The notes: generated from the letters alone by a model not told the origin. A stretch of DNA of 64,000 nucleotides from Planctomycetota bacterium (GCA_038227875.1 JBBRPR010000003.1:197028-261027), one strand, 5' to 3'; positions 15,692-32,258 are shown, numbered from the stretch's first letter. Made by a program: numbers and translations.

Positions 15692-16729
15692 TCAGTAAAA
15701 TTCGTTCAAATGAACCGTGCCGTTGGGCGCCGACTTCACCGCATCGACCACGCGCAAGGCCGCCACCGCAGCGTCATTCCCATTGCTGGGAATTCGATGC
15801 TCTACAATCGCGTCGGCGAATTCGCGGATCTCTCCGGCGTAACCGTTGAGGAAAAGCGAATTCTGGCCCATGTTCGGGAGGGCAAAATCCGGCCGCCAGA
15901 TTTTGATGTCGGCGAGCTCGAACTCCGGCCGGATCGCAGCCAGTTCCGGCGCCAGCACGTCGACGCCGCTTAAACCGGCCGTGTGCACTTCCAGTTGCGT
16001 GACGTTGTCGACATAAATACAGCCGTCCTTCCCGCCGATCACGCCGTTGAGCTCCACGCGTTCCTGGATGCGCGGGCCGTGGCAGCCGAGCATCAACTGC
16101 GCCCACTTGCCGGAAGTGAAGTGCAGAGTCAGGCCCAGCGACAGGGCTTTGCCGCTGTCGTAGCTGACCGAAGTCACGCTCTGGACGTCGCCGAAGATGC
16201 TGATGGCCAGATCGATCGGGTGGATGGCCATGAACAGCAGCAGGCCGTTGAGGTTGTTGCCGGCCCAATGCGTGTAGCGAAAGGACCCGCTGGAGGGCAC
16301 GCATTCTCCGGACGCGATCATGCTTAGGATTTTGGCGTAGGTCAGCGCGAAGCGTTTCATGAAGCCGGCCATGATGAAGGTGTCGTGCGCTTTGGCCAGC
16401 GCCACCAGTTCCGCGGCCAGGCGCGCGCTGGGGGCGGGCGGTTTTTCCACAAAAAGGGGAATCCCGCGCGCGAGCACTTTCTTTCCCAGCTCGTAATGGA
16501 GCGAATCAGCGCCGACGATCAGGACGCCATCGAGCGATTCGTCGGCCAGCATCTTCTCGGCATCGGTGTAGACGTTGGGCGCGCCGAAGATTCGCGCGTT
16601 GCGTCGCGCCAGATCTTCATTGAGATCGCAGACGGCCTGCAATTGGCAGCGGGCGTATTTCAGAGCGGGGTAGATGTTGTTCGTCGAATGCGTGCCACAG
16701 CCGATGAAGCCGAGTTTTGCCACAGACAT
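15692..16729 (-). CDS. Gfo/Idh/MocA family oxidoreductase
   Basis: GFIGCG, AVCD, LFVEKP and GFMKRF motifs. Confidence 0.9.
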   Translation of the reverse strand: MSVAKLGFIGCGTHSTNNIYPALKYARCQLQAVCDLNEDLARRNARIFGAPNVYTDAEKMLADESLDGVLIVGADSLHYELGKKVLARGIPLFVEKPPAPSARLAAELVALAKAHDTFIMAGFMKRFALTYAKILSMIASGECVPSSGSFRYTHWAGNNLNGLLLFMAIHPIDLAISIFGDVQSVTSVSYDSGKALSLGLTLHFTSGKWAQLMLGCHGPRIQERVELNGVIGGKDGCIYVDNVTQLEVHTAGLSGVDVLAPELAAIRPEFELADIKIWRPDFALPNMGQNSLFLNGYAGEIREFADAIVEHRIPSNGNDAAVAALRVVDAVKSAPNGTVHLNEFY

Positions 16730-16766
16730 GGTGTTTGCCTTTCAGTAGAGAGAGTCAGAACGGGAG

Positions 16767-17558
16767 TCAGGATTCGTGATTTTGTTTCAGCAGCCGCTGG
16801 AGGTACTCCCGACCGTCCCGCGCGTAGCGGTCGGCGTTTTCCGTGTCGTGGACTTCCAGTTCCTGGCTGAAAAACCCGCGGTACCCGGCGGCGGTAAGTT
16901 CCCGCACGACGCCGGCGTTGTCGGTCTCGCCGGCGCCCAGCGCGACGGATTGCGTGCCGAGGTGATCTTTGACGTGGACGTGAAAAACCCGCGGCGCAAA
17001 CCGGCGCGCGATGGCGACGGGGTCGACGCGGGCGGAGGTGAAATGGCCGGTATCCAGCGTCATGCCGATCTGCGGCGAGGGGCAGTGCGCGAAGAGACGC
17101 TCGTAGTCTGCGGCGAACTGGATCGAATTGCCGTACTGGTTTTCCAGCGCGAGCTTGACGGACGTGCCTTCCAGGCAGCGCGCCAGTTCGTCCAGCGATT
17201 CGAGAAACGGTTCGAACGGTTCGCTGGCGCGATCCGGCCCGCCTTCGACCAGGATTTCGCAGTGGAGCTGCTGCGCAAAATCGAGAGCGAGCTTGGCGTA
17301 ATCGGTGAGCGTGCGGCGGCGCGCTTCGGTGGGCGTCATGATCGCGCCGAGGTGGATGGCCGCCAGGGACAGGCCCGCGTCGGAAAGTTCTCCGGCCAGA
17401 TCGCCGGGCTGGAAAGTGCGCAGATCGCCATGGATGCTCCAGACTTCCACCGGCATCAGCAGCAGCTCGATCGCGTCGAAGCCGGCGGCCTTCGCTTTTT
17501 TCAGCACCGTGGCGCGATCGTCGCGAGCCCAGCAGATGGAAGAGGCGGCAATTTTCAT
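16767..17558 (-). CDS. Sugar phosphate isomerase/epimerase
   Basis: GFDAIEL, LALEN, LDTGH, HVHVKD and SQELE motifs; start MKIAASS at 17558. Confidence 0.85.
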   Translation of the reverse strand: MKIAASSICWARDDRATVLKKAKAAGFDAIELLLMPVEVWSIHGDLRTFQPGDLAGELSDAGLSLAAIHLGAIMTPTEARRRTLTDYAKLALDFAQQLHCEILVEGGPDRASEPFEPFLESLDELARCLEGTSVKLALENQYGNSIQFAADYERLFAHCPSPQIGMTLDTGHFTSARVDPVAIARRFAPRVFHVHVKDHLGTQSVALGAGETDNAGVVRELTAAGYRGFFSQELEVHDTENADRYARDGREYLQRLLKQNHES

Positions 17559-17578
17559 GGGGTGAAGCTCCTGAGAGG

Positions 17579-17656
17579 GCGGGATTCGGGAATCGGGATT
17601 CGGCATTCGAAACGGCGGGGAGCGGCGAATCCCGATTCCCCACTCCCGAATCCCGC
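17579..17656. repeat. Inverted heptamer arrays (GGGAATC/GATTCCC)
   Basis: GCGGGATTCGGGAATCGGGATTCG ... CGAATCCCGATTCCCCACTCCCGAATCCCGC. Confidence 0.75.
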
Positions 17657-17680
17657 TTCTCGATCCATATCTTCCCTTGC

Positions 17681-18523
17681 ATGGCGTTCAGCGAACAGAA
17701 TCACGATACCCCATGGACATTCGTCCCGTCCATGGTTGCGCTTGCACGGAACATATATAAAATTGCGGTGATGAAAAAGCGCGCGGCCGAACCACATCCG
17801 GATTTCAGCTTTGTGGCGTATGCCACGATCACGCACCACCGCGGCTGGCGCTACCCGTTTCACCGTCACGCACACCACGAAGTGATCGCCGTGGAGAGCG
17901 GCGCGATGACCGTGGAGATGAATGGAACGCTCTACCGCGCCCGCGCCGGCGATGTCCTCTTCTACCGCGCGGGGATGGCTCACAAGGAGGACGCCGAGGT
18001 CAAGGCGCTGGCGACGACGCTGTGCCTGTCCTATTCCGGTGAAGCGTTCGTTGGTGAGATTCTTCCGCAGACCAAAGACCGCTCCGGCCGCGTGCGCCAG
18101 ATGCTGCGCTGGATCCACGACGACATGAACCTGCCCGCCGAATCTCGCGGCGCGCGTGGCACGGCCCTGATCGCCGCTCTCGTCGCCGAACTCGCGTTTC
18201 TAGCTCAGCCCCGCGATGACCCGCTGGTTGAAGGCACTCGCCGCTACGCCCGCGAACACCTGGCGGAAAAAATCACGCTCGACGACCTGGCCTTGCAGGC
18301 CGGCATGAGCAAATACCACTACCTGCGCCGCTACCACGCGCTGACCGGCCTGACCCCGATGCTCGACGTCCGCCGCCAGCGCCTGGAACACGCCCGCAAC
18401 CTGATCGTCTCCACGTCCTGGCCCTTGCGCGTGATCGCCGATCGCGCCGGTTTCAACACCGAATTCCACCTCGCCAAGCTCTTCCGGCAGCATCTGGGGA
18501 TCACACCGAGTTCCCTGCGGTAG
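17681..18523 (+). CDS. AraC family transcriptional regulator (cupin + double HTH)
   Basis: HRHAHHE cupin, TLDDLA..AGMSKYH and FRQHLGITP; divergent from the sugar genes. Confidence 0.9.
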   Translation: MAFSEQNHDTPWTFVPSMVALARNIYKIAVMKKRAAEPHPDFSFVAYATITHHRGWRYPFHRHAHHEVIAVESGAMTVEMNGTLYRARAGDVLFYRAGMAHKEDAEVKALATTLCLSYSGEAFVGEILPQTKDRSGRVRQMLRWIHDDMNLPAESRGARGTALIAALVAELAFLAQPRDDPLVEGTRRYAREHLAEKITLDDLALQAGMSKYHYLRRYHALTGLTPMLDVRRQRLEHARNLIVSTSWPLRVIADRAGFNTEFHLAKLFRQHLGITPSSLR

Positions 18524-18649: not shown

Positions 18650-19273
18650 ATGGCCGACGTTCAGCTCCGCACGTACTGTTTTCTCGACAGCATGCAGCCC
18701 CAGTTCGCATCGCTGGAAGCCTCGACGGCTCAGGGCTTTCTCCCCGTCACCGGCCAGGCGGCGCTCTATGTTGAAGTCGGCCCGGGCATGGCCGTGCAGC
18801 GGCTGATGGACATCGCCTGCAAATCCACGGCGGTGATGCCCGGCACGCTGGTGGTCGAGCGCTCCTTTGGGCTGATGGAAGTCCATCACGACGACCAGGG
18901 CGAAGTGCAGCAGGCCGGCGCGGCGGTGCTTGCGGCGCTGGGCTTGAAGGAAATTCAACGCATCAAGCCGCGCGTGACGACCAGCACGATCATCCGCAAG
19001 GTCACCGATTACCACACGATGCTGATCAACCGTTCGCGCCGCGGCAACATGCTGCTCGGCGGCCAGACGCTTTACATTTTGGAAGTCGAACCCGCCGCGT
19101 ACGTGACGCTGGCGGCCAACGAAGCGGAAAAAGCCAGCCACGTCAACCTGCTGGAACTGCGCGGCGTCGGCGCCTTCGGCCGCTTGTTCCTCGGCGGTGA
19201 TGAAGCCGACGTCGTCGTCGCCGCGGAAGCCGCGGAAGCGGCGATCAAGGCGGTGACGGGAGCGGAGAAGTGA
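18650..19273 (+). CDS. BMC shell trimer, permuted tandem domain (CcmP/CsoS1D-like BMC-T)
   Basis: LRTYCFLDSMQPQ, VVERSFGLMEVH, LAANEAEKA and GAFGRLFL motifs. Confidence 0.9.
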   Translation: MADVQLRTYCFLDSMQPQFASLEASTAQGFLPVTGQAALYVEVGPGMAVQRLMDIACKSTAVMPGTLVVERSFGLMEVHHDDQGEVQQAGAAVLAALGLKEIQRIKPRVTTSTIIRKVTDYHTMLINRSRRGNMLLGGQTLYILEVEPAAYVTLAANEAEKASHVNLLELRGVGAFGRLFLGGDEADVVVAAEAAEAAIKAVTGAEK

Positions 19274-19410
19274 AGGACTGAGGACTGAGGAGAACCGCCG
19301 CTGACGCGGGTTTTTCCAACCGGGAAATTTTTAAGCGAAGCGCCGCGCTGTAACCTCAGTCCTTCTGTTAAAAACGACAAAGTGCACCACAAACACGGGA
19401 GACACACCAC

Positions 19411-19701
19411 ATGGCAGACGCCCTCGGCATGATCGAAACGCGCGGATTCGCGGCGCTGGTGGAAGCCAGCGATGCGATGGTCAAGGCGGCGAAGGTCGAC
19501 TTGATTGGCTTTGAAAAAATTGGCGGCGGCTACGTCACGGCCATCGTGCGCGGCGATGTCGCGGCGGTCAAGGCGGCGACGGAAGCCGGCGCGCGGGCGG
19601 CGGAAGCCATCGGCGAAGTCGTCAGCGTCCACATCATCCCGCGGCCGCACGTCAACGTCGACGAGGTCCTGCCGCTGGGCCGCAAGTCCGCCAAGAAGTA
19701 A
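19411..19701 (+). CDS. BMC shell hexamer (BMC-H, EutM/PduA-like)
   Basis: [26 protein letters not shown] and HIIPRPH motifs. Confidence 0.97.
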
Positions 19702-19725
19702 GACTGGCTTCCGCTGCGTGTCAGT

Positions 19726-19757
19726 CTGACTTTCGGGCCACGTGGCCCGAAGGTCGG
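19726..19757 (+). other. Strong intergenic hairpin between BMC-H and the aldehyde dehydrogenase
   Basis: CTGACTTTCGGGCCACGTGGCCCGAAGGTCGG, no U-tract. Confidence 0.55.
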
Positions 19758-19789
19758 GCCGCTGTGTCACCGGACTTCCGAGGTGTTCG

Positions 19790-21421
19790 ATGCAACTGGA
19801 CGACAGCAAAGTCGCGGAACTGGTCTCACGCGTGGTGGCTCGCTTGAAGCAAAACGGGGCGGCGCCATCGCTGGCCAAGGCGCCAGCACCGAAAGTCGCA
19901 CACGCTCCGGCAGCGGAGCACACCGGGAGTACCAACTGGGTGCGTTCCAAACCCGCGCGTGCCGACGATCGGCCCATCCAGCGCAAGACGGGTTTCTCGT
20001 CCTCAGGACCCACTCCCGCGGTCGCGAAAAAAACGGCTGCGCCTGCTTCGACGTCAGCACCCACGGTCGCGAAGGCTGCTCCGGCCACCGGCGACGGCGT
20101 GTATACCGATGTCGATGCCGCCTGCCGCGCGGCCGAACGTTCCTATCAGGAACTCACCAAGCTCGGCTTCAACGCGCGCTTCAAACTGATCGAAGTTTTC
20201 CGCGCCGCGGCGCTGGCCAACATCGAACGCTGGTCGGTGGAAGCCGCGCGCGAAACCGGCATGGGCCGCGCTGAGGACAAGCTCAAGAAAAACCGTCTCG
20301 TCACGCTGCGCACGCCCGGCCCGGAAATCCTGGTCAACCCCACGACCTTCGCCGGCAGCGACGGCATCACCAGCATCCGACTCGACCCCTGGGGCGTGAT
20401 CGCCTCGATCATTCCCTGCACCAATTCCACCGAGACGGTGATCAACAACGGCATCGGAATGCTCGCCGCCGGCAACGCGGTGGTCTTCAATCCGCACCCG
20501 GTCGCGAAGAAAATTTCCTGCGACGCCGTCCGGACGCTCAACCAGGCATTGTCCGCCGCCGGATTTCCCAAGGAACTGCTCTGCATCCTCGCCGAACCGA
20601 CCGTCGAGTCGGCAAACGCGCTGATGAAACACCCGCTCACGGGCATGGTCCTGGTCACTGGCGGCGGAGCCGTCGTCGACGTGGCGATGAAGTGCGGCAA
20701 GCGTGCCGTCTGCGCCGGGCCGGGCAACCCGCCCTCGGTGGTCGACGAAACCGCGTGTCTCGACCGCGCCGCCAAGGCGCTGGTCTCCGGCGCCTCGCTG
20801 GACAACAACGTCGTCTGCACCGACGAGAAAGCCGTCATCGCCGTCGCCTCCATCGCCGACGCGCTGAAACAGAAAATGCTCGCCCGGGATTGCGTCGAAG
20901 TCACTGGCGCGAACATCGAAAAGCTGACGAAGATCATCCTGAGCGATCCGGGCAGCCCGACGCATCACGGTATGACCAACAAGAAATTCGTCGGCAAGAA
21001 TCCCTCGGTGATCCTGCGCGAAATCGGCATGAACGTCGACGACCGCGTGCGCCTGGCGATCGTCGACGTCGAGAAGGATCACCCGTTGATCTGGACCGAG
21101 CAGCTGATGCCCGTGCTGCCGATCTGCCGCGTCAAGGACGCCGACGAGGCGATCACCTTCGCCGCCGCCGTCGAAGGTGGACGCCGCCACACCGCGTCGA
21201 TCCATTCGCAGCGATTGGACCGCATCACGCGCTTCGCCAACACGCTGAACTGCTCGATCTGCGTCGCCAACGATTCCAACTACGCGGGCTTGGGGCTCAA
21301 CGGCGAGGGCTACACCAGTTTCTCGATCGCCACGCCGACGGGCGAAGGCCTGACGACCGCGCGCACGTTCTGCCGCGAGCGGCGGCTGGCGGTGTGCGGG
21401 GGAGGGCTGGGGAGGGGCTAA
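19790..21421 (+). CDS. CoA-acylating aldehyde dehydrogenase (EutE/PduP-like) with N-terminal encapsulation peptide
   Basis: N-terminal helix [17 protein letters not shown], Pro/Ala linker, [27 protein letters not shown] and ATPTGEG motifs. Confidence 0.92.
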
Positions 21422-21423
21422 CA

Positions 21424-21588
21424 GCATTGCGGATTTCGGATTGCGGATTGCGGATTGGACGGCGCCGCTCGGTTGTGTGTCCGGACGCCGAAGCTTTGAG
21501 AGGACGGATTTGTGGAACGTAAAAGCGCTGTGAAGTTTTCGACTCTCGCGGTTCCAATCCGCAATCCGCAATCCGAAATCCGCAATGC
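21424..21588. repeat. Perfect 36-bp inverted repeat made of ATTGCGG heptamers, between convergent genes
   Basis: 21424-21459 is the exact reverse complement of 21553-21588. Confidence 0.9.
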
Positions 21589-21591
21589 CCT

Positions 21592-22125
21592 TCAAGCCAC
21601 TGCCACCACGACAATGGACGCAATCAGAATGACCAGCGCCACCGACAACTTCACCGCGACGCCGACGGCTCGGCCGAGTACCGCGCCGAAGGCGACCTGC
21701 AGGTTGGGGTCGAGTTTTTTCTGGTGGCGCATTTCGCCGAGGATCGCGCCGACGAAGGTGCCGATGAACGAGGCGACGACCGAACCGATCACGGGAATTG
21801 GCACCAGCCCGCCGAAGAAGGCTCCACCAAAGCCGCCGATCAGCGCGCCCCACGCGGCGGATTTCGAACCGCCGAATTGCTTCGAACCGAATTGGCCGGC
21901 CAGCAGATCGATGCCTTCAGCGACCAGACCGACGAGAAAAAATCCGGCCACCCAGTACCACGGCATCATTTTACCGCTAGTGCCCATGCAGAGGATAAAC
22001 GCGGCGGCGGCCTGCACCAGCGGACCGGGCAGACCGAAGGGCACGATGAAAACGCCGGCGAGCTGCACCAGGAAGAAGCCGATCAGCGCGAGGCTGCCGG
22101 CGAGTACGTGGAGGAAGTTTTGCAT
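21592..22125 (-). CDS. DUF456 family membrane protein
   Basis: GLPG, FGGSK..AWGALIGG, GAILGE and AFGAVLGR pattern. Confidence 0.8.
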   Translation of the reverse strand: MQNFLHVLAGSLALIGFFLVQLAGVFIVPFGLPGPLVQAAAAFILCMGTSGKMMPWYWVAGFFLVGLVAEGIDLLAGQFGSKQFGGSKSAAWGALIGGFGGAFFGGLVPIPVIGSVVASFIGTFVGAILGEMRHQKKLDPNLQVAFGAVLGRAVGVAVKLSVALVILIASIVVVAVA

Positions 22126-22213
22126 CGTCGTCGCTGCCCGAATGGAACCTTACGCAGAGTACCGCCGCCCGGGCCGCTCACCAACTGGAATTAACGGAAG
22201 CTGGAATTAACAG

Positions 22214-22987
22214 ATGTCGCTGACCCAAGTTCCCTGGACCGAACGCGAACTGCGCAAGCAGATCGTCAAAGCGTGCACCGCTCTGGCGCGCAAGAATCTT
22301 GTCGCGGCCACCGATGGCAACGTCTCCGCGCGGCTGGGCTACGACCGGGTGCTGGTGACGCCGTCGAACGTCAACAAAGGCGAAGTCGGCGAGCTCGACA
22401 TTCTGCTCTGCGACATGGACGGCCGCAAAGTCCGCGGGCGCGGCGAGTCGAGCAGCGAAGTCCACGTCCATCTCGCCGCTTACCGCAACCGCGAAGACAT
22501 CCACGCCGTGGTTCATGCGCATCCACCGGTCGCCACCGCGTTCACCTTCGCGGGCCTGGCGGAAATCTTTCGCACGCCGATCATCCCGGAGGTCGTAGCG
22601 CAGATCGGCCCGATTCCGTGCGTACCCTACATTCAGCCCGGCACGCGCGAACTGGCGGAAGCCGTGGGCAAGGCCTTTCGCGATTGCGACATCGTGATGA
22701 TGGCTCAGCACGGCGCGGCCACCGGCGCGAAGGATCCGTGGTCGGCCTACCTGCGCATGGAGAAGCTCGAACACTTCGCCACCATTGTGAAAACCGCGCG
22801 CGAACTGGCCGCCAGCGCCGGGCAGGAGATCCGGACCTTGAGCGACGCGCAGGTCGACGCGCTGCGCGCCGGGTACGGAAAAGGGAAATTGAAAAGCAGT
22901 AGTGTCCCAACGGAAGTAAGCAGCGATGCGATGGTCGAACGAATCGCCGCCGCTGTTCTTGCAAGGATGGGAAGGGCGGCCGGTTGA
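22214..22987 (+). CDS. Class II aldolase (FucA-like) with C-terminal encapsulation peptide
   Basis: DGNVSAR, TPS, SSEVHVH, VVHAHP and QHG motifs; terminal helix DAMVERIAAAVLARM. Confidence 0.92.
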   Translation: MSLTQVPWTERELRKQIVKACTALARKNLVAATDGNVSARLGYDRVLVTPSNVNKGEVGELDILLCDMDGRKVRGRGESSSEVHVHLAAYRNREDIHAVVHAHPPVATAFTFAGLAEIFRTPIIPEVVAQIGPIPCVPYIQPGTRELAEAVGKAFRDCDIVMMAQHGAATGAKDPWSAYLRMEKLEHFATIVKTARELAASAGQEIRTLSDAQVDALRAGYGKGKLKSSSVPTEVSSDAMVERIAAAVLARMGRAAG

Positions 22988-23177
22988 GAATTGGTGCCAG
23001 TGTGATCGCGCGAGAATGGAACTCGGTTGTGTGGCGTTGTGATCGGGAAGTTCGCGAACGACAGCGTTGGATACATTCATGAGAACCCGCCCTATGCGAA
23101 GCTCCAAAGAACATCCGCTCTCGGAACGCGCCACTCCCAAGAGCCAAGAGCCAGGAGCCAAGAGCTGCCCCACAATC

Positions 23178-23516
23178 ATGACCATCGAACAGGTCGCCGC
23201 CTATCTGCAGCTCCATCCGCAGGTCGTTTACCGCCACGTGCGTGCCGGGACTCTGCCAGCCAGCCGCATTGGGCGGACGATCCGATTTAAGAAGTCGGTG
23301 CTCGACGAATTTCTGGAAAAAGGCGCGTGGGAATTTGCTCATCAGTATCTTACGTACCTGGCGCGCGTGAAGTCCGGCAGCGTGTCCGTTGCCGGTGAGA
23401 TGCCGAAACCCGCGACCCTCACTGCCCGCGCCACTAGCGCCGCCGTGCCGATGGCATCACAGACTCCGCCGGAAATTCCGGACGCACTCAAGCAATTCTC
23501 CGCGGACATCGACTAA
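23178..23516 (+). CDS. Excisionase-like HTH DNA-binding protein
   Basis: MTIEQVAAYLQLHPQVVYRHVRAGTLPASRIGRTIRF; flanked by CCAAGAG heptamer arrays at 23137-23165 and 23541-23571. Confidence 0.8.
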   Translation: MTIEQVAAYLQLHPQVVYRHVRAGTLPASRIGRTIRFKKSVLDEFLEKGAWEFAHQYLTYLARVKSGSVSVAGEMPKPATLTARATSAAVPMASQTPPEIPDALKQFSADID

Positions 23517-23576
23517 CCATGGCGCACCGCCCAGCCACCCCCAAAAGCCAAGAGCCAAGAGCCAGGAGCCACCCAC

Positions 23577-23837
23577 ATGATCCTCGGTAAAATCGTCGGC
23601 ACCGTCACCTCCACGCGTAAACAGGAGACGCTGGGCGGCTTCAAATTCCTGCTGATCCAGAAGCGCATGAAGCAGGGCGACGGCGATGCCGCGCTGGGCG
23701 AAATGTTCGTCGCGGTGGACCTCACCGGCGCGGGCACCGGCGAAGAAGTCATCGTCGCCACCGGCCGCGCCGCGCGCATCGCGATGGGCAAGGAGGATCT
23801 GCCAATTGACGCCGCGGTGATTGGGATTGTGGATTAG
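23577..23837 (+). CDS. BMC vertex pentamer (EutN/CcmL, BMC-P)
   Basis: MILGKIVGTVTSTRK, VAVD..GAG.GE.V and DAAVIGIVD motifs. Confidence 0.95.
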   Translation: MILGKIVGTVTSTRKQETLGGFKFLLIQKRMKQGDGDAALGEMFVAVDLTGAGTGEEVIVATGRAARIAMGKEDLPIDAAVIGIVD

Positions 23838-24001
23838 CGGCGCGAAAATCTTCCGCCGCCGCCGCGACCGCCTTGCACAGTCAAGAGTTCTCCCTGCTCA
23901 TGCGGCGGCCTGATTGCATACGCACGCGTCCCGAATCCCGTATCCCCAATCACGGCCGTTATTCACTTCACCCCGCGCGCATTTTCGATAAGACATTCCC
24001 C

Positions 24002-24604
24002 ATGCATGTCATGACTGAAAACGAGATCCGCAATGTCGCCAGCCGTATCGAAGCGGGTGGGACCTTCACTGTTCCGCCGGAGACGATCCTGACGCCGCTG
24101 GCGCGCGATTACCTCCATGGGCGCGGGATTCAGGTCGTCGATCAGCACGGCGGAAAGTCGCACGCAAAGCCCGCCGCGTCCGCGCCGTCGTCCGATGACG
24201 CGCTGGTCAGCGCCGTCGCCGACGAAGTCAGCCGCATCCTTCGCGAACAGCAGGCGCCGCAGGGAAAGTCAGCCGCGCCCGCCGATCCCGCAGCCGTGGT
24301 GGCGCGCAAGACCATCGCCGGTGAAGGCACGTCCAACCGCGCCGTAGTCTGGGCGATCGGCGGCGACCGGCCGGGCATTCTCGCCGACGTCGCGGAACTC
24401 CTCAGTCGCCACAAGGCCAACATTCTCGAAATCAACCAGACCATCCTCAGCGGCGTCTTCGCCATGGTCGTAATCGTGGACCTCAAAGGCGTCACGCTGG
24501 CCTTCGCGGAATTCAAGGCGGAGCTCGAAGCGCTCGGCAAGAAGCTGGGTGTGAATCTCTCGGCGCAGCGGGATGAGATTTTTCAGTACATGCATCGAGT
24601 GTGA
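24002..24604 (+). CDS. ACT-domain protein (UPF0237-like) with N-terminal TPLARD domain and putative encapsulation peptide
   Basis: C-terminal GGDRPGI...NILEINQTIL...QRDEIFQYMHRV ACT domain; N-terminal TENEIR...ILTPLARDYL; internal helix DDALVSAVADEVSRIL. Confidence 0.8.
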   Translation: MHVMTENEIRNVASRIEAGGTFTVPPETILTPLARDYLHGRGIQVVDQHGGKSHAKPAASAPSSDDALVSAVADEVSRILREQQAPQGKSAAPADPAAVVARKTIAGEGTSNRAVVWAIGGDRPGILADVAELLSRHKANILEINQTILSGVFAMVVIVDLKGVTLAFAEFKAELEALGKKLGVNLSAQRDEIFQYMHRV

Positions 24605-24608
24605 CGGG

Positions 24609-24695
24609 GAGTTTTGAAATTTGAGTTTTCAGTTTTGAGTTGTGTGGCGACCGGCGATAGCACAACTCAAAACTAAAAACTCACAACTAAAAACT
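24609..24695. repeat. Inverted heptamer arrays (TTTTGAG/CTCAAAA)
   Basis: GAGTTTTCAGTTTTGAGTTGTG ... CACAACTCAAAACTAAAAACTC. Confidence 0.8.
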
Positions 24696-24780
24696 GCCCT
24701 ACCGATCCCGCACTGGGTTTGTGCGGCGTATGGAGTAATCTATTTTCATGCGCGCAGGATGGCGTTTGGGAGCGGAAACT

Positions 24781-26235
24781 ATGCTTAAAGCACGGCAGGC
24801 GTCCTTGATTGTCGGTGAAACCAGCTCCTCGCGGCTGCTGGAAGGAATCGGCGTCAACTGGTGCGACGCGTTTGGACTCGGCGGCGAGACCGGGATGGGG
24901 CAGCGCGGGATGCCGCTCAACACGCCGGCCATTCCGCTGCTCGACAATATTTCCGGCTGGGAGACGGTGCTCGATGAGCTGACCGTGCTCAAGGCCGGCT
25001 GCATCCGCTTCATGCTGCCGCCCGAAGGCTTCATCACCAAGCGCGGCACGATGGATTTCGACTGCCCGCACTTTCAGCGCCTCGAGCGCCTGAACGCGTG
25101 GGCCGGAGCCAATGGCGCGAGCATCATTCTCGATACGATTCACGTGCCGCATCATCTTCAGGTCAAGGGCGAGGACGGTCCCGGCGTGGCGCTGAACAAC
25201 CGCGCGGCGCTCGACCCGACGACCTTCGCCGAGAAATTTGCCGGTCCGCTCTTGGATTACTGTCTTTCCGAGCGCGGCTGGAACCAGATCCGCTACTACA
25301 GCCCGATCAACGAGCCGCTCTACGGCGGCATCTACCACCATCCCAAGGGCGACACCTACCGCGCGTACGCCGGGCTGATGGCTTCGCTGCGCAAGGAACT
25401 GGTCGACCGCGACCTGGTGCCGCAGCGCATTTCGCTGATCGGACCGTCGGCGCCGTCGGTGCAGCAGTGGCCGGTTCCCGACCTGCACGCGCGCGGGCTG
25501 GACATCGACCCGCTGCTCGACGCTTACGATCAGCACGAATATTCCGCACGCTTCGACGGCGATCCGCCGAATTCGAACGGGGATTCGATTCCGATGAGCG
25601 AACTGATCGAGCGGCATCTCACGCCGCACGTCAAGTACGCCGAATCGCGCGGCAAGCCGTTTCTCATCACGGAAATGAAGCACTCCTATTTTGGCGCCAA
25701 GCAGGGCGATCCCAACGGCCCCGCCACGCATGACGCGTTTCTGCTCGACGCCGAATTCGCGATCCGCGCGATCAACGCCGGTGTGCAGGGGTTGATGCGC
25801 TGGAGCTTCCTCAACCCCGGCGACATCGACGGCCACTGGCAGTTTTTGGAAACGGCGGATAATTCGTACCGGCGCTGCGAGAACACGTTCTACGGTTACG
25901 CCACGCTGATCCGCTACGCGCGCCCGCACGCGGATGTGCTGCAGAGTTCCGTGCAGAGCAATTTCTACCCGTGGCCGCACGTCCACGCCTGCGCGTTGCG
26001 CAAGTCGCCGCAGGGCGATGTGACGGTGCTGGTCGTCAACGACCATCCCAGCGAGCAGATCGAACTGAACGTGAAGCTGCCCGCCTCGCTACGCAAGAAG
26101 GTCAACGTGATTCGCAACGACCGCACCTTGAAGCACGCCAAGGTCGACGAAGTGAAACGCGAATTCACCGACCGCCTCCCGCCGCGCAGCCTGACGGCGT
26201 ATACGACCTTGGAGTACGATCCGTTGACTCGTTGA
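24781..26235 (+). CDS. Putative clan GH-A glycoside hydrolase (TIM barrel + C-terminal beta-sandwich)
   Basis: PINEP acid/base motif, DQHEY, FLITEM nucleophile motif and C-terminal TVLVVN...LPPRSLT; family not resolvable by eye. Confidence 0.7.
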   Translation: MLKARQASLIVGETSSSRLLEGIGVNWCDAFGLGGETGMGQRGMPLNTPAIPLLDNISGWETVLDELTVLKAGCIRFMLPPEGFITKRGTMDFDCPHFQRLERLNAWAGANGASIILDTIHVPHHLQVKGEDGPGVALNNRAALDPTTFAEKFAGPLLDYCLSERGWNQIRYYSPINEPLYGGIYHHPKGDTYRAYAGLMASLRKELVDRDLVPQRISLIGPSAPSVQQWPVPDLHARGLDIDPLLDAYDQHEYSARFDGDPPNSNGDSIPMSELIERHLTPHVKYAESRGKPFLITEMKHSYFGAKQGDPNGPATHDAFLLDAEFAIRAINAGVQGLMRWSFLNPGDIDGHWQFLETADNSYRRCENTFYGYATLIRYARPHADVLQSSVQSNFYPWPHVHACALRKSPQGDVTVLVVNDHPSEQIELNVKLPASLRKKVNVIRNDRTLKHAKVDEVKREFTDRLPPRSLTAYTTLEYDPLTR

Positions 26236-26245
26236 TAGCTTTGCT

Positions 26246-26332
26246 GGGTAGTTTTTAGTGATGAGTTTTGAGTTTTGAATTGATCTTCTGCAACACAACT
26301 CAAAACTAATAACTCAAAACTCAAAGCTACCC
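26246..26332. repeat. Inverted heptamer arrays (TTTTGAG/CTCAAAA)
   Basis: GGGTAG...GAGTTTTGAGTTTTGA ... CAACTCAAAACTAATAACTCAAAACTC...CTACCC. Confidence 0.8.
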
Positions 26333-26430
26333 TTCATACTTCGTATCCACCTTCAGTGAACTTGCACCGAAGCTCACTTCACTCCAAAATCTCTCCCTTC
26401 ATTCATTCAACAGGACTACAGGAACCGCTC

Positions 26431-27780
26431 ATGTCGCTTTCGTTTGAAGAAATTTTCGAAACCATCCGCATGATCGGGATGGAACATCTCGATATTCGCA
26501 CCACGACGCTGGGCATTTCATTGCTGGATTGCGCCACGGGGTCGGGGGAATCGACGGCGCGCAATGTTTACGAGAAGGTCGTGCGCATCGGTTCGGCGCT
26601 GGTGCCGGCGGCCAAGCAGATTGAGCTGGAACACGGCATCCCGATCATCAACAAGCGCGTCTCGATCACGCCCGTGGCGCTGCTGGGTGTCGCCGATCCG
26701 CTGCCGATCGCGCTGGCGCTCGACCGCGCCGCGACGGAGATCGGCATCGATTTCCTCGGCGGCTACACGGCGCTGGTCCACAAGGACGTCTCCGCGCCGG
26801 ACAAGGCGCTGATCGCGTCGCTGCCGGAAGCGCTTTCGCGCACCAACCGCCTCTGCGGGTCGGTCAACGTCGGCGATTCGCGCACGGGCCTGAACATGGA
26901 CGCCTGCTTTTCGCTCGGCCGGATGTTGAAGGCCCTGGCCGAAGCGACGCGCGAGAAGGACGGGCTGGGCTGCGCGAAGTTCTGCTCATTCGCCAACGCG
27001 GTCGAAGACAATCCGTTCATGGCGGGCTCGTTTTTCGGGCCCGGCGAAGGCGAGTGCAGTCTTTCCGTCGGCATCTCCGGTCCGGGTGTCGTTGCGGCGG
27101 TGTTGAAAGACATGCCCGGCGCCGATCTGGCGACGTTGTCCGACGCCATTCGCCGCACCGCGTACAAGATTACGCGCATGGGTGAACTGGTCGGCCGCAA
27201 AGTCAGCGAACGGCTCGGCGTGCCGTTCAATATCGTCGACGTCTCGCTGGCTCCGACGCCCGCGCCCGGCGACAGTGTCGGCGAGATTTTCGAAATCATG
27301 GGCTTCGAACGGACCGGCGCGCCGGGTTCGACGGCCGCATTGATGCTCCTGACCGATGCCGTGAAAAAAGGCGGCGCGATGGCCTCCGGGCACATGGGCG
27401 GCCTCTCCGGCGCATTCATTCCTGTCAGCGAAGACCACGCGCTGGCGTCGGCCGCGGCAGAAGGCGCACTCTCGATCGAGAAGCTCGAAGCGATGACCTC
27501 CGTTTGTTGCGTCGGCCTGGACATGGTGATCATCCCTGGCGACACCAGCGCCGAAACCCTGGCCGGCATTATCGCCGACGAATCGGCCATCGGCGTGATG
27601 AACCACAAAACCACCGCCTGCCGCCTGATCCCCGCGCCCGGCAAGAAAGCCGGCGACATCGTCGACTTCGGCGGCCTGCTGGGCTCCGGCCCGGTGATGT
27701 CCGTCTCGAAATTCTCGAACGAGCGCTTCATCCACCGCGGCGGCAGGATTCCGCCGCCGTTGCATGGGATGAGGAACTGA
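26431..27780 (+). CDS. DUF711 / UPF0210 (so-called PFL family) protein
   Basis: ETIRMI..EHLDIRT.TLGISLLDC, INKRVSITP, EDNPFMAG, GGLSGAFIPVSED and EKLEAMT.VC.VGLDM motifs. Confidence 0.93.
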   Translation: MSLSFEEIFETIRMIGMEHLDIRTTTLGISLLDCATGSGESTARNVYEKVVRIGSALVPAAKQIELEHGIPIINKRVSITPVALLGVADPLPIALALDRAATEIGIDFLGGYTALVHKDVSAPDKALIASLPEALSRTNRLCGSVNVGDSRTGLNMDACFSLGRMLKALAEATREKDGLGCAKFCSFANAVEDNPFMAGSFFGPGEGECSLSVGISGPGVVAAVLKDMPGADLATLSDAIRRTAYKITRMGELVGRKVSERLGVPFNIVDVSLAPTPAPGDSVGEIFEIMGFERTGAPGSTAALMLLTDAVKKGGAMASGHMGGLSGAFIPVSEDHALASAAAEGALSIEKLEAMTSVCCVGLDMVIIPGDTSAETLAGIIADESAIGVMNHKTTACRLIPAPGKKAGDIVDFGGLLGSGPVMSVSKFSNERFIHRGGRIPPPLHGMRN

Positions 27781-27783
27781 TTT

Positions 27784-27947
27784 TTATTGCGGATTTCGGA
27801 TTTCGGATTGCGGATGAGTTGGCGACGCTCGGTCAAAGCGCGGTGCGCCGTAGCATCAATTGAAATGATTCGTGGACCGGAAAGTAAAGTTCAAGGACGA
27901 ACTGCCGCAGTTCTAATCCGAAATCTGCAATCCGAAATCCGCAATAA
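27784..27947. repeat. Inverted heptamer arrays (ATTGCGG/ATTTCGG) between convergent genes
   Basis: 27784-27815 pairs with 27915-27947. Confidence 0.8.
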
Positions 27948-30923: not shown

Positions 30924-32258
30924 GTGGCCACCGTCAAACCGTTTCCCGCCTTCCGCTACGACACCCAGAAACTCAATACCTCCATGGCCGCGCTCGTCTG
31001 TCCGCCCTACGACGTGATCGACGCCGCGATGCAGGAGGCGCTCTACCAGAAAAGCGGCGCCAACGTCGTCCGCGTGGAATTCGGCAAGACGCAGACCAGC
31101 GACAAGCCCGGTGATGACCGCTACTCCCGCGCCGCCGACACGCTGAAAAAATGGCTCTCCGACGGCACGCTCAAGCAGGACGCCAAGCCCGCCTTCTACC
31201 TCTATGAACAGACCTTCGACATCGCCTCGGGCGGCGCCAGCCGCAGCAAAGTCGTCGTGCGCCGCGGCATCTTCGGCTCGGTGAAGCTTGAACCCTTCGG
31301 TACCGGCTGCGTCTTCCCGCACGAAGAAACCTTCGGCGGCCCCAAGGCCGACCGCTTGAATTTGATGCGCGCCTGCTCGGCCAATCTCTCGCCGGTCTTC
31401 GGTCTCGTCCCCGATGAAGATGCGTCGCTGACCAAGCTGATGGAACAGGGCGTCACCTTGAAGAAGCCCGACGTCGAGCTGACCGAAGAAAATGGCGTGA
31501 TCAACCGCCTCTGGGTGATCGACGACGCGAAGTGGTGCGCCGCGATGTCCGACCGGCTGGCCGGCAAGAACGTGTTCATCGCCGACGGCCACCACCGCTA
31601 TGAAACCTCCTGCAACTACCGCGACGAACGCCGCGCTGCCGACAACGACACTGATGGCAAGCAGGGCCGCGAGTACGAAGGCACGCTGATGATGTGCGTG
31701 GCGATGAGCGACCCCGGCTTGTACATCCTTCCGACGCACCGCCTGATCCAAGACGCGCCCGGCCTCTCCAAAGACGCGTTCCTCCGCGACGCCGCCGCGC
31801 TCTTCGACATCCACGACGCCTCCGAACAGGAACTGCTCCAACTGGCCGAAGAAGAAAAAGGCCCCGTGCGCATCGGCGTGATTTTCAAGGACGGCAGCCG
31901 CAAGATCGTCAGCGTCAAAGCCGCCGCCGCCGAAGCGATGAAGCGCGCGCAGCCGGCCAAGTCGGACGCGTGGCGCGGCCTGGACGTCTCCGTGCTGCAG
32001 GAGCTGGTGCTCAAAGGCATCCTGCGCCTGAGCGAAGAAAAAGTGCTGCGCAAGGAAGGCGTGAGCTACACGCCCGACACGCGCAACGCGCTGAACAAGG
32101 TCACCGCCAAAGACGGCGGCTACGTGATGGGCTTCATCCTGCGCCCCACCTCGATCGAACAAGTCCGCGACGTCGCCACCGGCGGCGAGAAGATGCCGCA
32201 GAAGTCGACGTACTTCTACCCGAAGCTGCTGACCGGCCTGGTGATCCGCAAGATCTAG
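30924..32258 (+). CDS. DUF1015 family protein
   Basis: PPYDVI, PHEET, IADGHHRYE and MPQKSTYFYPKL motifs. Confidence 0.92.
   Translation: MATVKPFPAFRYDTQKLNTSMAALVCPPYDVIDAAMQEALYQKSGANVVRVEFGKTQTSDKPGDDRYSRAADTLKKWLSDGTLKQDAKPAFYLYEQTFDIASGGASRSKVVVRRGIFGSVKLEPFGTGCVFPHEETFGGPKADRLNLMRACSANLSPVFGLVPDEDASLTKLMEQGVTLKKPDVELTEENGVINRLWVIDDAKWCAAMSDRLAGKNVFIADGHHRYETSCNYRDERRAADNDTDGKQGREYEGTLMMCVAMSDPGLYILPTHRLIQDAPGLSKDAFLRDAAALFDIHDASEQELLQLAEEEKGPVRIGVIFKDGSRKIVSVKAAAAEAMKRAQPAKSDAWRGLDVSVLQELVLKGILRLSEEKVLRKEGVSYTPDTRNALNKVTAKDGGYVMGFILRPTSIEQVRDVATGGEKMPQKSTYFYPKLLTGLVIRKI

Follow-up and report, generated by a model that had tools for sequence, protein, structure and literature searches.

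Among the catalogued types of bacterial microcompartment (BMC), those closest to the locus described here are MIC3, HO type II and SPU5, PVM, and MIC2 and RMM1, which we compared through the text descriptions of Sutter (2021; PMC8217296, Supplementary Data 2 and 6) and Axen (2014). The locus occupies positions 18650-27780 of a 64,000 nt stretch from a Planctomycetota bacterium (GCA_038227875.1 JBBRPR010000003.1:197028-261027; this whole stretch is called the window), and encodes a shell trimer (BMC-Tdp), a shell hexamer (BMC-H), a vertex pentamer (BMC-P), an acylating aldehyde dehydrogenase (AldDH) and a class II aldolase, followed by an ACT protein (GlyXS), a glycoside hydrolase (GH) and a DUF711 protein (GlyXL). 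We give an even chance to the reading that these genes specify a microcompartment that combines a shell of three genes with two helix-tagged enzymes, in which an N-terminal tag on GlyXS would dock that protein, and probably GlyXL with it, as an optional module on the shell.

MIC3 shares with the window a planctomycete host, a BMC-Tdp of the CcmP clade, a class II aldolase in the genome, the lack of a phosphotransacylase (PTAC) and an ACT profile, and the MIC3-like loci found in this study carry tagged GlyXS together with GlyXL. It differs in having five BMC-P, two BMC-H, a BMC-Ts and an amidohydrolase, against one BMC-P, one BMC-H and no BMC-Ts here; its AldDH has no helix and a Cys-rich C-terminal extension, whereas the window AldDH has an N-terminal helix and stands in one locus with an aldolase that is likewise tagged. 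HO type II and SPU5 resemble the window in a single BMC-H of the HO kind, an N-tagged AldDH, a class II aldolase with a C-terminal helix and the absence of PTAC, but both need a BMC-P triplet and BMC-Ts, which are absent from the shell genomes compared (86-95% complete, two nearly closed), are described without ACT or DUF711, and come from other phyla. PVM has a planctomycete host and an aldolase and AldDH core in common with the window, yet it carries a BMC-P triplet, two BMC-H, PTAC and, within the locus, acetate kinase and lactate/malate dehydrogenase, and no BMC-Tdp. MIC2 and RMM1 match in having a single BMC-H, a single BMC-P as well as BMC-Tdp, but their other enzymes differ and the MIC2 AldDH is without a helix.

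Judged by these text descriptions, no catalogued type fits. The original prediction called the locus a candidate uncharacterised metabolosome; its ACT gene is already catalogued, an ACT profile being listed for ACI and MIC3 and an N-extended ACT for FRAG4 (Sutter 2021, PMC8217296). DUF711/PF05167 does not appear in the seven text-searchable catalogue files; the catalogue's locus diagrams are pictures, so an individual locus of such a kind may be filed there. We found no publication linking DUF711 or GlyXL to microcompartments. New here are the homology of the tag to the shell-binding domain of EutQ, the minimal-shell aldolase type as its host, the optional character of the module, and the exclusion of the GH.

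The GlyXS/GlyXL pair and its EutQ-type domain

The ACT and DUF711 genes had been taken for a widespread pair of unknown function, which is out of date, as the pair is GlyXS/GlyXL, its identity confirmed by Price et al. (bioRxiv 10.1101/2024.10.14.618325; for DUF711 family context see PMC4390871). According to that report, B. breve and M. maripaludis require both proteins to grow when glycine is lacking, an E. coli glyA mutant is rescued by the pair under aerobic conditions, and GlyXL, which occurs in ~885 genera, gives a glycine route without GlyA, many genomes holding both routes; its section on the pair does not mention microcompartments. The window proteins resemble the published pair in that DUF711 matches 2HA9, ACT matches 1ZPV and the pocket of three Arg and one Glu is kept, and differ from it in a 110-residue extension of GlyXS, a GH gene between the pair and Cys360 of GlyXL.

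It is this extension that suggests a connection with the shell. GlyXS consists of a EutQ/EutT-type domain (residues 1-47), an amphipathic helix (64-83) and the ACT domain (112-200), with flexible linkers between them; in a structure model, residues 1-40 have a predicted local distance difference test score (pLDDT) > 90 and the linkers are disordered. The best fold match of the ACT domain is 1ZPV of S. pneumoniae (Z 13.5, root-mean-square deviation (rmsd) 2.0 A, 85 residues). This 190-220 aa form of ACT protein was found in 35 protein clusters with three conserved blocks, and nine residues of the N-domain are invariant across the 35 sequences. A profile of these 35 own-lineage N-domains places EutT first and EutQ second among 12 E. 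coli Eut proteins, while another profile, built on 14 MIC3-like N-domains that were selected in other planctomycete families with a hand-made pattern, puts EutQ on top (30.8 bits for residues 1-50, against 9.6 for the best shuffle) and places the window ACT protein first of 6019 genome proteins. In none of six tests did any of 1000 shuffles of the first 50 residues reach the real score, and the own-lineage and MIC3-like profiles align with each other at 97% probability. A search of the ESM Atlas with the N-domain alone was uninformative (best score 0.76).

These profile comparisons show the GlyXS N-domain to be homologous to helices 1-2 of EutQ. Work on the Salmonella protein assigns shell binding to helices 1-2 of EutQ and cargo binding to helices 3-4, and its residues 1-99 target green fluorescent protein (GFP) to the organelle (PMC12487888). 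Both proteins continue from the N-domain into a linker and then an amphipathic helix, but the window protein has one middle helix against two in EutQ and an ACT C-terminus in place of the PF06249 cupin; it would at best act as the EutQ N-terminus does, and is not an EutQ. Separately, two MIC3-like loci carry, directly 5′ of tagged GlyXS, small proteins of ~95-100 aa that seem to be a EutQ-type N-domain alone (L123:10242-10526, L127:7772-8077).

GlyXL itself matches 2HA9 with 485 bits by sequence and, as a fold, with Z 53.7 and an rmsd of 1.6 A over 408 residues of a ten-stranded beta/alpha barrel; the next fold matches are ribonucleotide reductase (RNR) and glycyl-radical enzymes (Z 9-15). Its proposed pocket residues R23, R76, E334 and R398 correspond to B. 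breve R22/R75/E339/R403, matched by spacing, and are invariant in 42/42 rows. Cys359 is invariant as well, and Cys360 is private to four own-lineage rows, Ser standing there in 38/38 outside rows. We considered these two cysteines as the finger-loop cysteines of pyruvate formate-lyase (PFL) and rejected the idea, the fold search showing the RNR/PFL barrel and no residue pairing; Price et al. (bioRxiv 10.1101/2024.10.14.618325) state that RNR catalytic residues are not conserved in GlyXL.

Some further genes were seen in passing. Five family genomes (L008-L012) have DUF711 genes of a distant subfamily, 26-28% identical to GlyXL and with no adjoining ACT, and a second domain resembling serine hydroxymethyltransferase (SHMT) lies within a ~1130-aa protein in G006, G012 and G014. 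In one shell-free genome (L118:1454-8415) an untagged GlyXS-GlyXL pair stands in a setting of amino-acid metabolism, flanked by what look from their sequences like a glycine-cleavage-like pair and a SerA-like gene.

Co-occurrence of tagged GlyXS and GlyXL with shell genes

The original prediction had named co-occurrence with shell genes as a check, and the outcome is favourable: GlyXL is enriched in shell-bearing genomes and the EutQ-type tag tracks shell genes. Across 401 genomes of the phylum, of which 142 contain BMC-P and 51 contain GlyXL, GlyXL is present in 43/142 BMC-P genomes versus 8/259 others (kinship inflating the Fisher value), and in all 27 five-pentamer (MIC3-like) genomes. Thirty-seven ACT matches lie outside the family, and 26 were taken as loci, 18 tagged and eight untagged. 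Every tagged locus is in a BMC-P genome, 17 of the 18 are directly 5′ of GlyXL, and 11 have a shell gene within the 2-3.5 kb of sequence examined. All eight untagged loci are in genomes without BMC-P, and these are exactly the eight GlyXL genomes that lack it. Plain ACT loci from metagenomes behave likewise, with a tag or shell gene in 0/40 and GlyXL in 38/40. When 20 wider regions were searched by tblastn, 12 proved to contain shell genes, and eight share the order AldDH, BMC-H, BMC-Tdp, two BMC-P, a further BMC protein, tagged ACT and GlyXL, which fits the MIC3 main locus of the catalogue. The joint occurrence of tag with shell and of GlyXL with pentamers argues that the link between the ACT/DUF711 pair and microcompartments is real.

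In a quick GlyXL tree the own lineage forms one clade (100) apart from the MIC3-like rows, which are only weakly supported as monophyletic (63), and the direction of any transfer is not readable. In three loci (L116, L120, L126) tagged GlyXS and GlyXL accompany a BMC-Ts-like gene with no further shell gene nearby, possibly as a satellite module; the BMC-Ts-like open reading frame (ORF) in L120 and L126 was recognized by eye.

The core locus

The host family was sampled by 17 genomes, of which six (the window's own and five relatives) have shell genes; with one metagenome contig (L027) these give seven loci of the window's own type, and three sequences (L001-L003) that duplicate DNA already in the sample were counted once. 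The gene order BMC-Tdp, BMC-H, AldDH, (DUF456), aldolase, HTH, BMC-P is kept in G006, G012 and G014, the same order spans a contig break in G001, in G015 the HTH and BMC-P genes are on another contig, and L027 shows it from AldDH onward (Table 1). The core is thus a conserved locus type of one family, and a BMC-Tdp ortholog occurs in 6/62 genomes of the class, all six from this family.

Table 1. Features of the microcompartment locus and its extension, numbered from the first nucleotide of the window.
Feature	Position	Strand	Remarks
BMC-Tdp shell trimer, CcmP / HO-5816 clade	18650-19273	+	CcmP-like, 275 bits
BMC-H shell hexamer, closest to Haliangium HO-5815	19411-19701	+	
Acylating AldDH, PduP/EutE type	19790-21421	+	PRK15398, 555 bits (cut-off 403)
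DUF456 membrane protein	21592-22125	-	Between AldDH and aldolase
Class II aldolase	22214-22987	+	Catalytic Glu and three His intact; C-terminal encapsulation helix
HTH_17 (excisionase-like) protein	23178-23516	+	
BMC-P vertex pentamer	23577-23837	+	Sole one in genome
ACT protein, GlyXS (UPF0237)	24002-24604	+	200 aa; PRK00194, 92.5 bits (cut-off 74)
Palindromic hairpin of 7-nt repeats	24604-24702	.	After ACT gene
Clan GH-A glycoside hydrolase (GH5/GH30/GH39-like), unnamed family	24781-26235	+	484-495 aa; upstream ATG at 24748 possible
Second hairpin, same 7-nt repeat family	26246-26326	.	After GH gene
GlyXL (DUF711/UPF0210)	26431-27780	+	NF003700, 660 bits (cut-off 440)

All genes named in the original prediction are intact ORFs, and its minimal shell set of permuted BMC-T, BMC-H and BMC-P agrees with the family scores; to these genes we add DUF456, HTH_17 and the N-terminal extension of the ACT protein. 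The Haliangium-like character claimed for the shell was borne out, with HO-5815 the best natural Protein Data Bank (PDB) match of BMC-H (153 bits; EutM 128 bits) and equal PDB scores of CcmP and HO-5816 for BMC-T (233.5 bits each). The genome (9.3 Mb, 88% complete) has one copy of each shell gene, and BMC-P is present once in all six shell genomes of the family. As expected of a metabolosome main locus, there is an acylating AldDH with its catalytic Cys and an encapsulation helix. PduL (PTAC, PF06130) was found in none of the five genomes searched (the window's own and four relatives), extending the predicted absence from the window. An acetate kinase is on another contig of the genome, and in 3/5 genomes it lies elsewhere than the locus; no alcohol dehydrogenase was seen among 20 proteins scanned from 14-32 kb, the remaining window not having been scanned for one. 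Since the PTAC/alcohol dehydrogenase core is not complete, the naming rule of the catalogue (Axen 2014 / Sutter 2021 scheme) makes this an 'incomplete core' (MIC) locus.

The encapsulation-type helices predicted for both enzymes were also confirmed, as these terminal amphipathic helices are conserved. The AldDH has an N-terminal helix with a long linker, and its catalytic Cys343 is followed by Thr. The C-terminal helix of the aldolase is present in 7/7 shell-linked copies, and three orthologs from genomes without shell matches (G004, G008 and G011; 93%, 89% and 74% complete) stop before it, a pattern of a helix kept with the shell and missing where no shell genes were found that supports the aldolase as cargo. 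When the encapsulation helices of the locus itself were made into a profile and 6019 predicted proteins were searched with it for more cargo, no clear match emerged beyond the two training proteins.

The aldolase is likely the aldehyde-making enzyme, as far as sequence indicates. Its family scores all fall below cut-off (OtnC 114 of 250, FucA 103 of 264), and its best PDB match is 6BTD, a 5-deoxyribulose-1-phosphate aldolase, an activity that would yield acetaldehyde. The AldDH carries Thr after the catalytic Cys in 7/7 own-type loci, a V329T-type change; V329T is one of the changes that make RpPduP prefer glycolyl-CoA in an engineered glycolyl-CoA reductase (PMC6298115). This Thr is a weak hint of a hydroxy-aldehyde substrate.

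Proposed function and alternatives

The outline of the core chemistry is highly probable by analogy with established metabolosomes, from which its two steps are drawn. From a ketose-1-phosphate the aldolase would release dihydroxyacetone phosphate plus a short aldehyde, for which a hydroxy-aldehyde is the best candidate (glycolaldehyde or lactaldehyde). The AldDH would convert this aldehyde to acyl-CoA; without PduL, CoA and NAD would be exchanged through gated BMC-Tdp pores or recycled by other cargo. That tagged GlyXS docks GlyXL on the shell we consider somewhat probable: the first domain would sit on the hexamer and the middle helix on the cargo helices, and the ACT domain would hold GlyXL. 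The specific chemistry is unlikely to be right in the form we can give it, namely that GlyXL acts on the two-carbon aldehyde pool by working on glyoxylate, formed from or alongside glycolaldehyde or glycolyl-CoA, inside or at the shell.

Within its own lineage the pair appears to be an accessory module and not the signature enzyme of the locus type. Of the family genomes, 4/6 with shell genes and 0/11 others combine tagged ACT with close GlyXL. The original prediction that DUF711 may be a cargo or signature enzyme therefore survives as a link to the microcompartment and is not supported as to a signature role, with neither gene found in 2/6 core genomes and GlyXL unlinked in three of the four that have both; being missing or unlinked in relatives, the pair is optional here, and it is constant in MIC3-like genomes. 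Seven own-lineage metagenome loci, three of which end inside ACT, comprise one complete BMC operon that GlyXL does not follow, two ACT-GlyXL, two ACT-GH and two ACT alone.

A number of observations weigh against the proposed docking of the pair. G001 and G015 (95% and 86% complete) have the core without tagged ACT and with only a distant DUF711 (27-28%). In G006, G012 and G014 the ACT gene follows BMC-P and GlyXL (77%) is unlinked, lying ~127 kb away, on another contig and ~526 kb away, respectively, with no ACT or shell gene within the 19 kb around it. Upstream of three tagged metagenome ACTs, 2.9 (L026), 3.6 (L025) and 10 kb (L028) of sequence contain no shell gene, and the full order shell-ACT-GH-GlyXL was seen in this window only, where strong hairpins flank the GH gene, so that GlyXL and the shell genes may be transcribed separately. 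GlyXL has no tag of its own, and the conserved middle helix of GlyXS, though similar in pattern to the encapsulation helices of the locus, ranks a weak 376/6019 on their profile. The eight untagged genomes represent three families only, kinship inflates every co-occurrence count, and 13/18 tagged loci were in the training set of the profile, the five held-out loci scoring 28-51 bits. As to chemistry, glyoxylate as the GlyXL product is itself a proposal (bioRxiv 10.1101/2024.10.14.618325). Of the four pocket changes in the engineered reductase, two are absent from the AldDH and a third is present in 3/7 loci, and the supply pathway is not uniform, with MtnA in 4/5 genomes, a strong fucose isomerase in 2/5 and none common to all.

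It is unlikely that tagged GlyXS is instead a EutQ-like scaffold, perhaps sensing an amino acid with its ACT domain, that connects the AldDH and aldolase helices to the shell while GlyXL stays cytosolic. Such a role would agree with the EutQ-like domain order, with ACT standing beside BMC-P though GlyXL is elsewhere (G006, G012, G014, L027), and with the N-domain-only proteins of MIC3-like loci (L123, L127). Against it, two genomes have the core without tagged ACT, tagged ACT and close GlyXL are jointly present or absent in 17/17 family genomes, and GlyXL is directly 3′ of tagged ACT in 17/18 phylum loci.

Distinctly unlikely, in our view, is that GlyXS/GlyXL arrived with the BMC locus as an ordinary route from glyoxylate to glycine in the cytosol, the tag being a leftover. 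The pair does function shell-free in B. breve, M. maripaludis and E. coli (bioRxiv 10.1101/2024.10.14.618325), in 38/40 plain ACT loci GlyXL is present without any shell gene, and some tagged ACTs are away from shell genes. A leftover is hard to reconcile with the strong conservation of the N-domain (nine invariant residues in 35 sequences, folding with pLDDT > 90) and with its not having been found in any shell-free genome examined; glyA is moreover present in 5/5 genomes tested, though many genomes have both routes.

The glycosidase could also take part, freeing a sugar whose phosphate the aldolase cleaves, which we consider very unlikely. The GH protein itself has no Pfam match, and a PDB search with it alone gave one chance match (E 0.4), but its family bears out the predicted GH-A assignment: there are 211 relatives, the architecture is a barrel with a beta-sandwich, PF00150 is found in 13/39 and PF17189 in 4/39, the acid/base E178 (NEP motif) is invariant and the nucleophile E298 is kept in at least 90% of 39 rows, the Atlas neighbours are GH5/GH39 and the family's PDB matches are of GH30/GH5/GH39 type. 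In favour of a role are these conserved catalytic Glu residues, the lack of a visible signal peptide, the recurrence of ACT-GH adjacency in L025 and L029, and the placement of the gene directly after the aldolase ortholog in G011 and facing DUF456 in G003. Both of the latter genomes are shell-free, so the GH belongs to the neighbourhood and not to the organelle. Orthologs occur in 5/17 family genomes, three of which (63-69%) have no shell matches, none was found in four shell genomes (G006, G012, G014, G015), the protein has no encapsulation helix, no kinase or isomerase gene is nearby, and repeat hairpins stand on both sides. The glycosidase had been predicted to extend the locus; its orthologs do not follow shell genes, and it is probably a passenger or bystander.

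Least probable is that GlyXL is the signature enzyme, making the aldehyde for the AldDH with the aldolase secondary, since despite its proposed aldehyde product, its place as sole enzyme besides AldDH in several MIC3-like main loci and its presence in every five-pentamer genome, the helix-tagged aldolase is in 6/6 shell genomes against GlyXL in 4/6, and the window AldDH is only 27-33% identical to MIC3-like AldDHs, so that the idea suits MIC3 better than this locus.

More broadly, we tentatively raise the possibility, which is less likely than docking in the window alone, that GlyXL-GlyXS is a true cargo across PduL-less metabolosomes (the window type, MIC3 and, by its ACT profile, ACI), loaded by the EutQ-type adaptor and supplying a missing core step. 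This step might be glycolaldehyde or glycolyl-CoA to glyoxylate, or release of CoA through the Cys359-Cys360 pair. If so, the window would hold the smallest self-contained system for finding the GlyXL substrate and a new minimal-shell BMC type. Tying GlyXL to aldehyde-handling organelles would narrow its chemistry and suggest what the core reaction of the unexplained MIC3-type compartments might be. As a shell-docking module the EutQ-type domain seems to be portable, here joined to a new partner, and it may be useful for loading engineered shells. As the natural three-gene shell is close to the Haliangium model shell, it should be rebuildable in E. coli and the reading is directly testable.

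Neighbouring genes and repeats

DUF456 is syntenic with the aldolase whether or not shell genes are present and is likely not a BMC part. The HTH_17 (helix-turn-helix) gene adjoins BMC-P or is one gene off in 7/7 own-type loci; the protein, likely a regulator, ends in a variable linker and a conserved short acidic C-terminal motif, and this tail could possibly bind the shell. In one relative a transposase-like ORF lies between AldDH and aldolase (L001:5788-6939). A gene that we presume from its motif to be methionyl-tRNA synthetase-like precedes the shell block in G001 and adjoins DUF456-aldolase in G008 and G011 (L013, L151, L162), a placement which suggests that the BMC-T/BMC-H/AldDH block was lost or gained.

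Upstream of the shell genes, a divergent AraC regulator, a TIM-barrel isomerase and a Gfo dehydrogenase (15692-18523) were dropped as members, not having been found at the matching place in other own-type loci. Downstream, a DUF1015 gene is found at 30924-32258; this family is an alternative phosphoserine phosphatase according to the GlyXL paper (bioRxiv 10.1101/2024.10.14.618325). A scan of 15-30 kb for riboswitches and RNA families gave nothing at gathering score and five sub-threshold matches, two of them on a repeat hairpin, and a promoter and terminator scan gave counts at chance level. Besides the hairpins of Table 1, intergenic palindromes of tandem 7-nt units occur in the window at 21424-21590, 23130-23170, 23534-23574 and 27784-27947. 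At least 10 such unit families are found dozens of times across the genome and look like a repeat system of the repetitive extragenic palindromic (REP) type.

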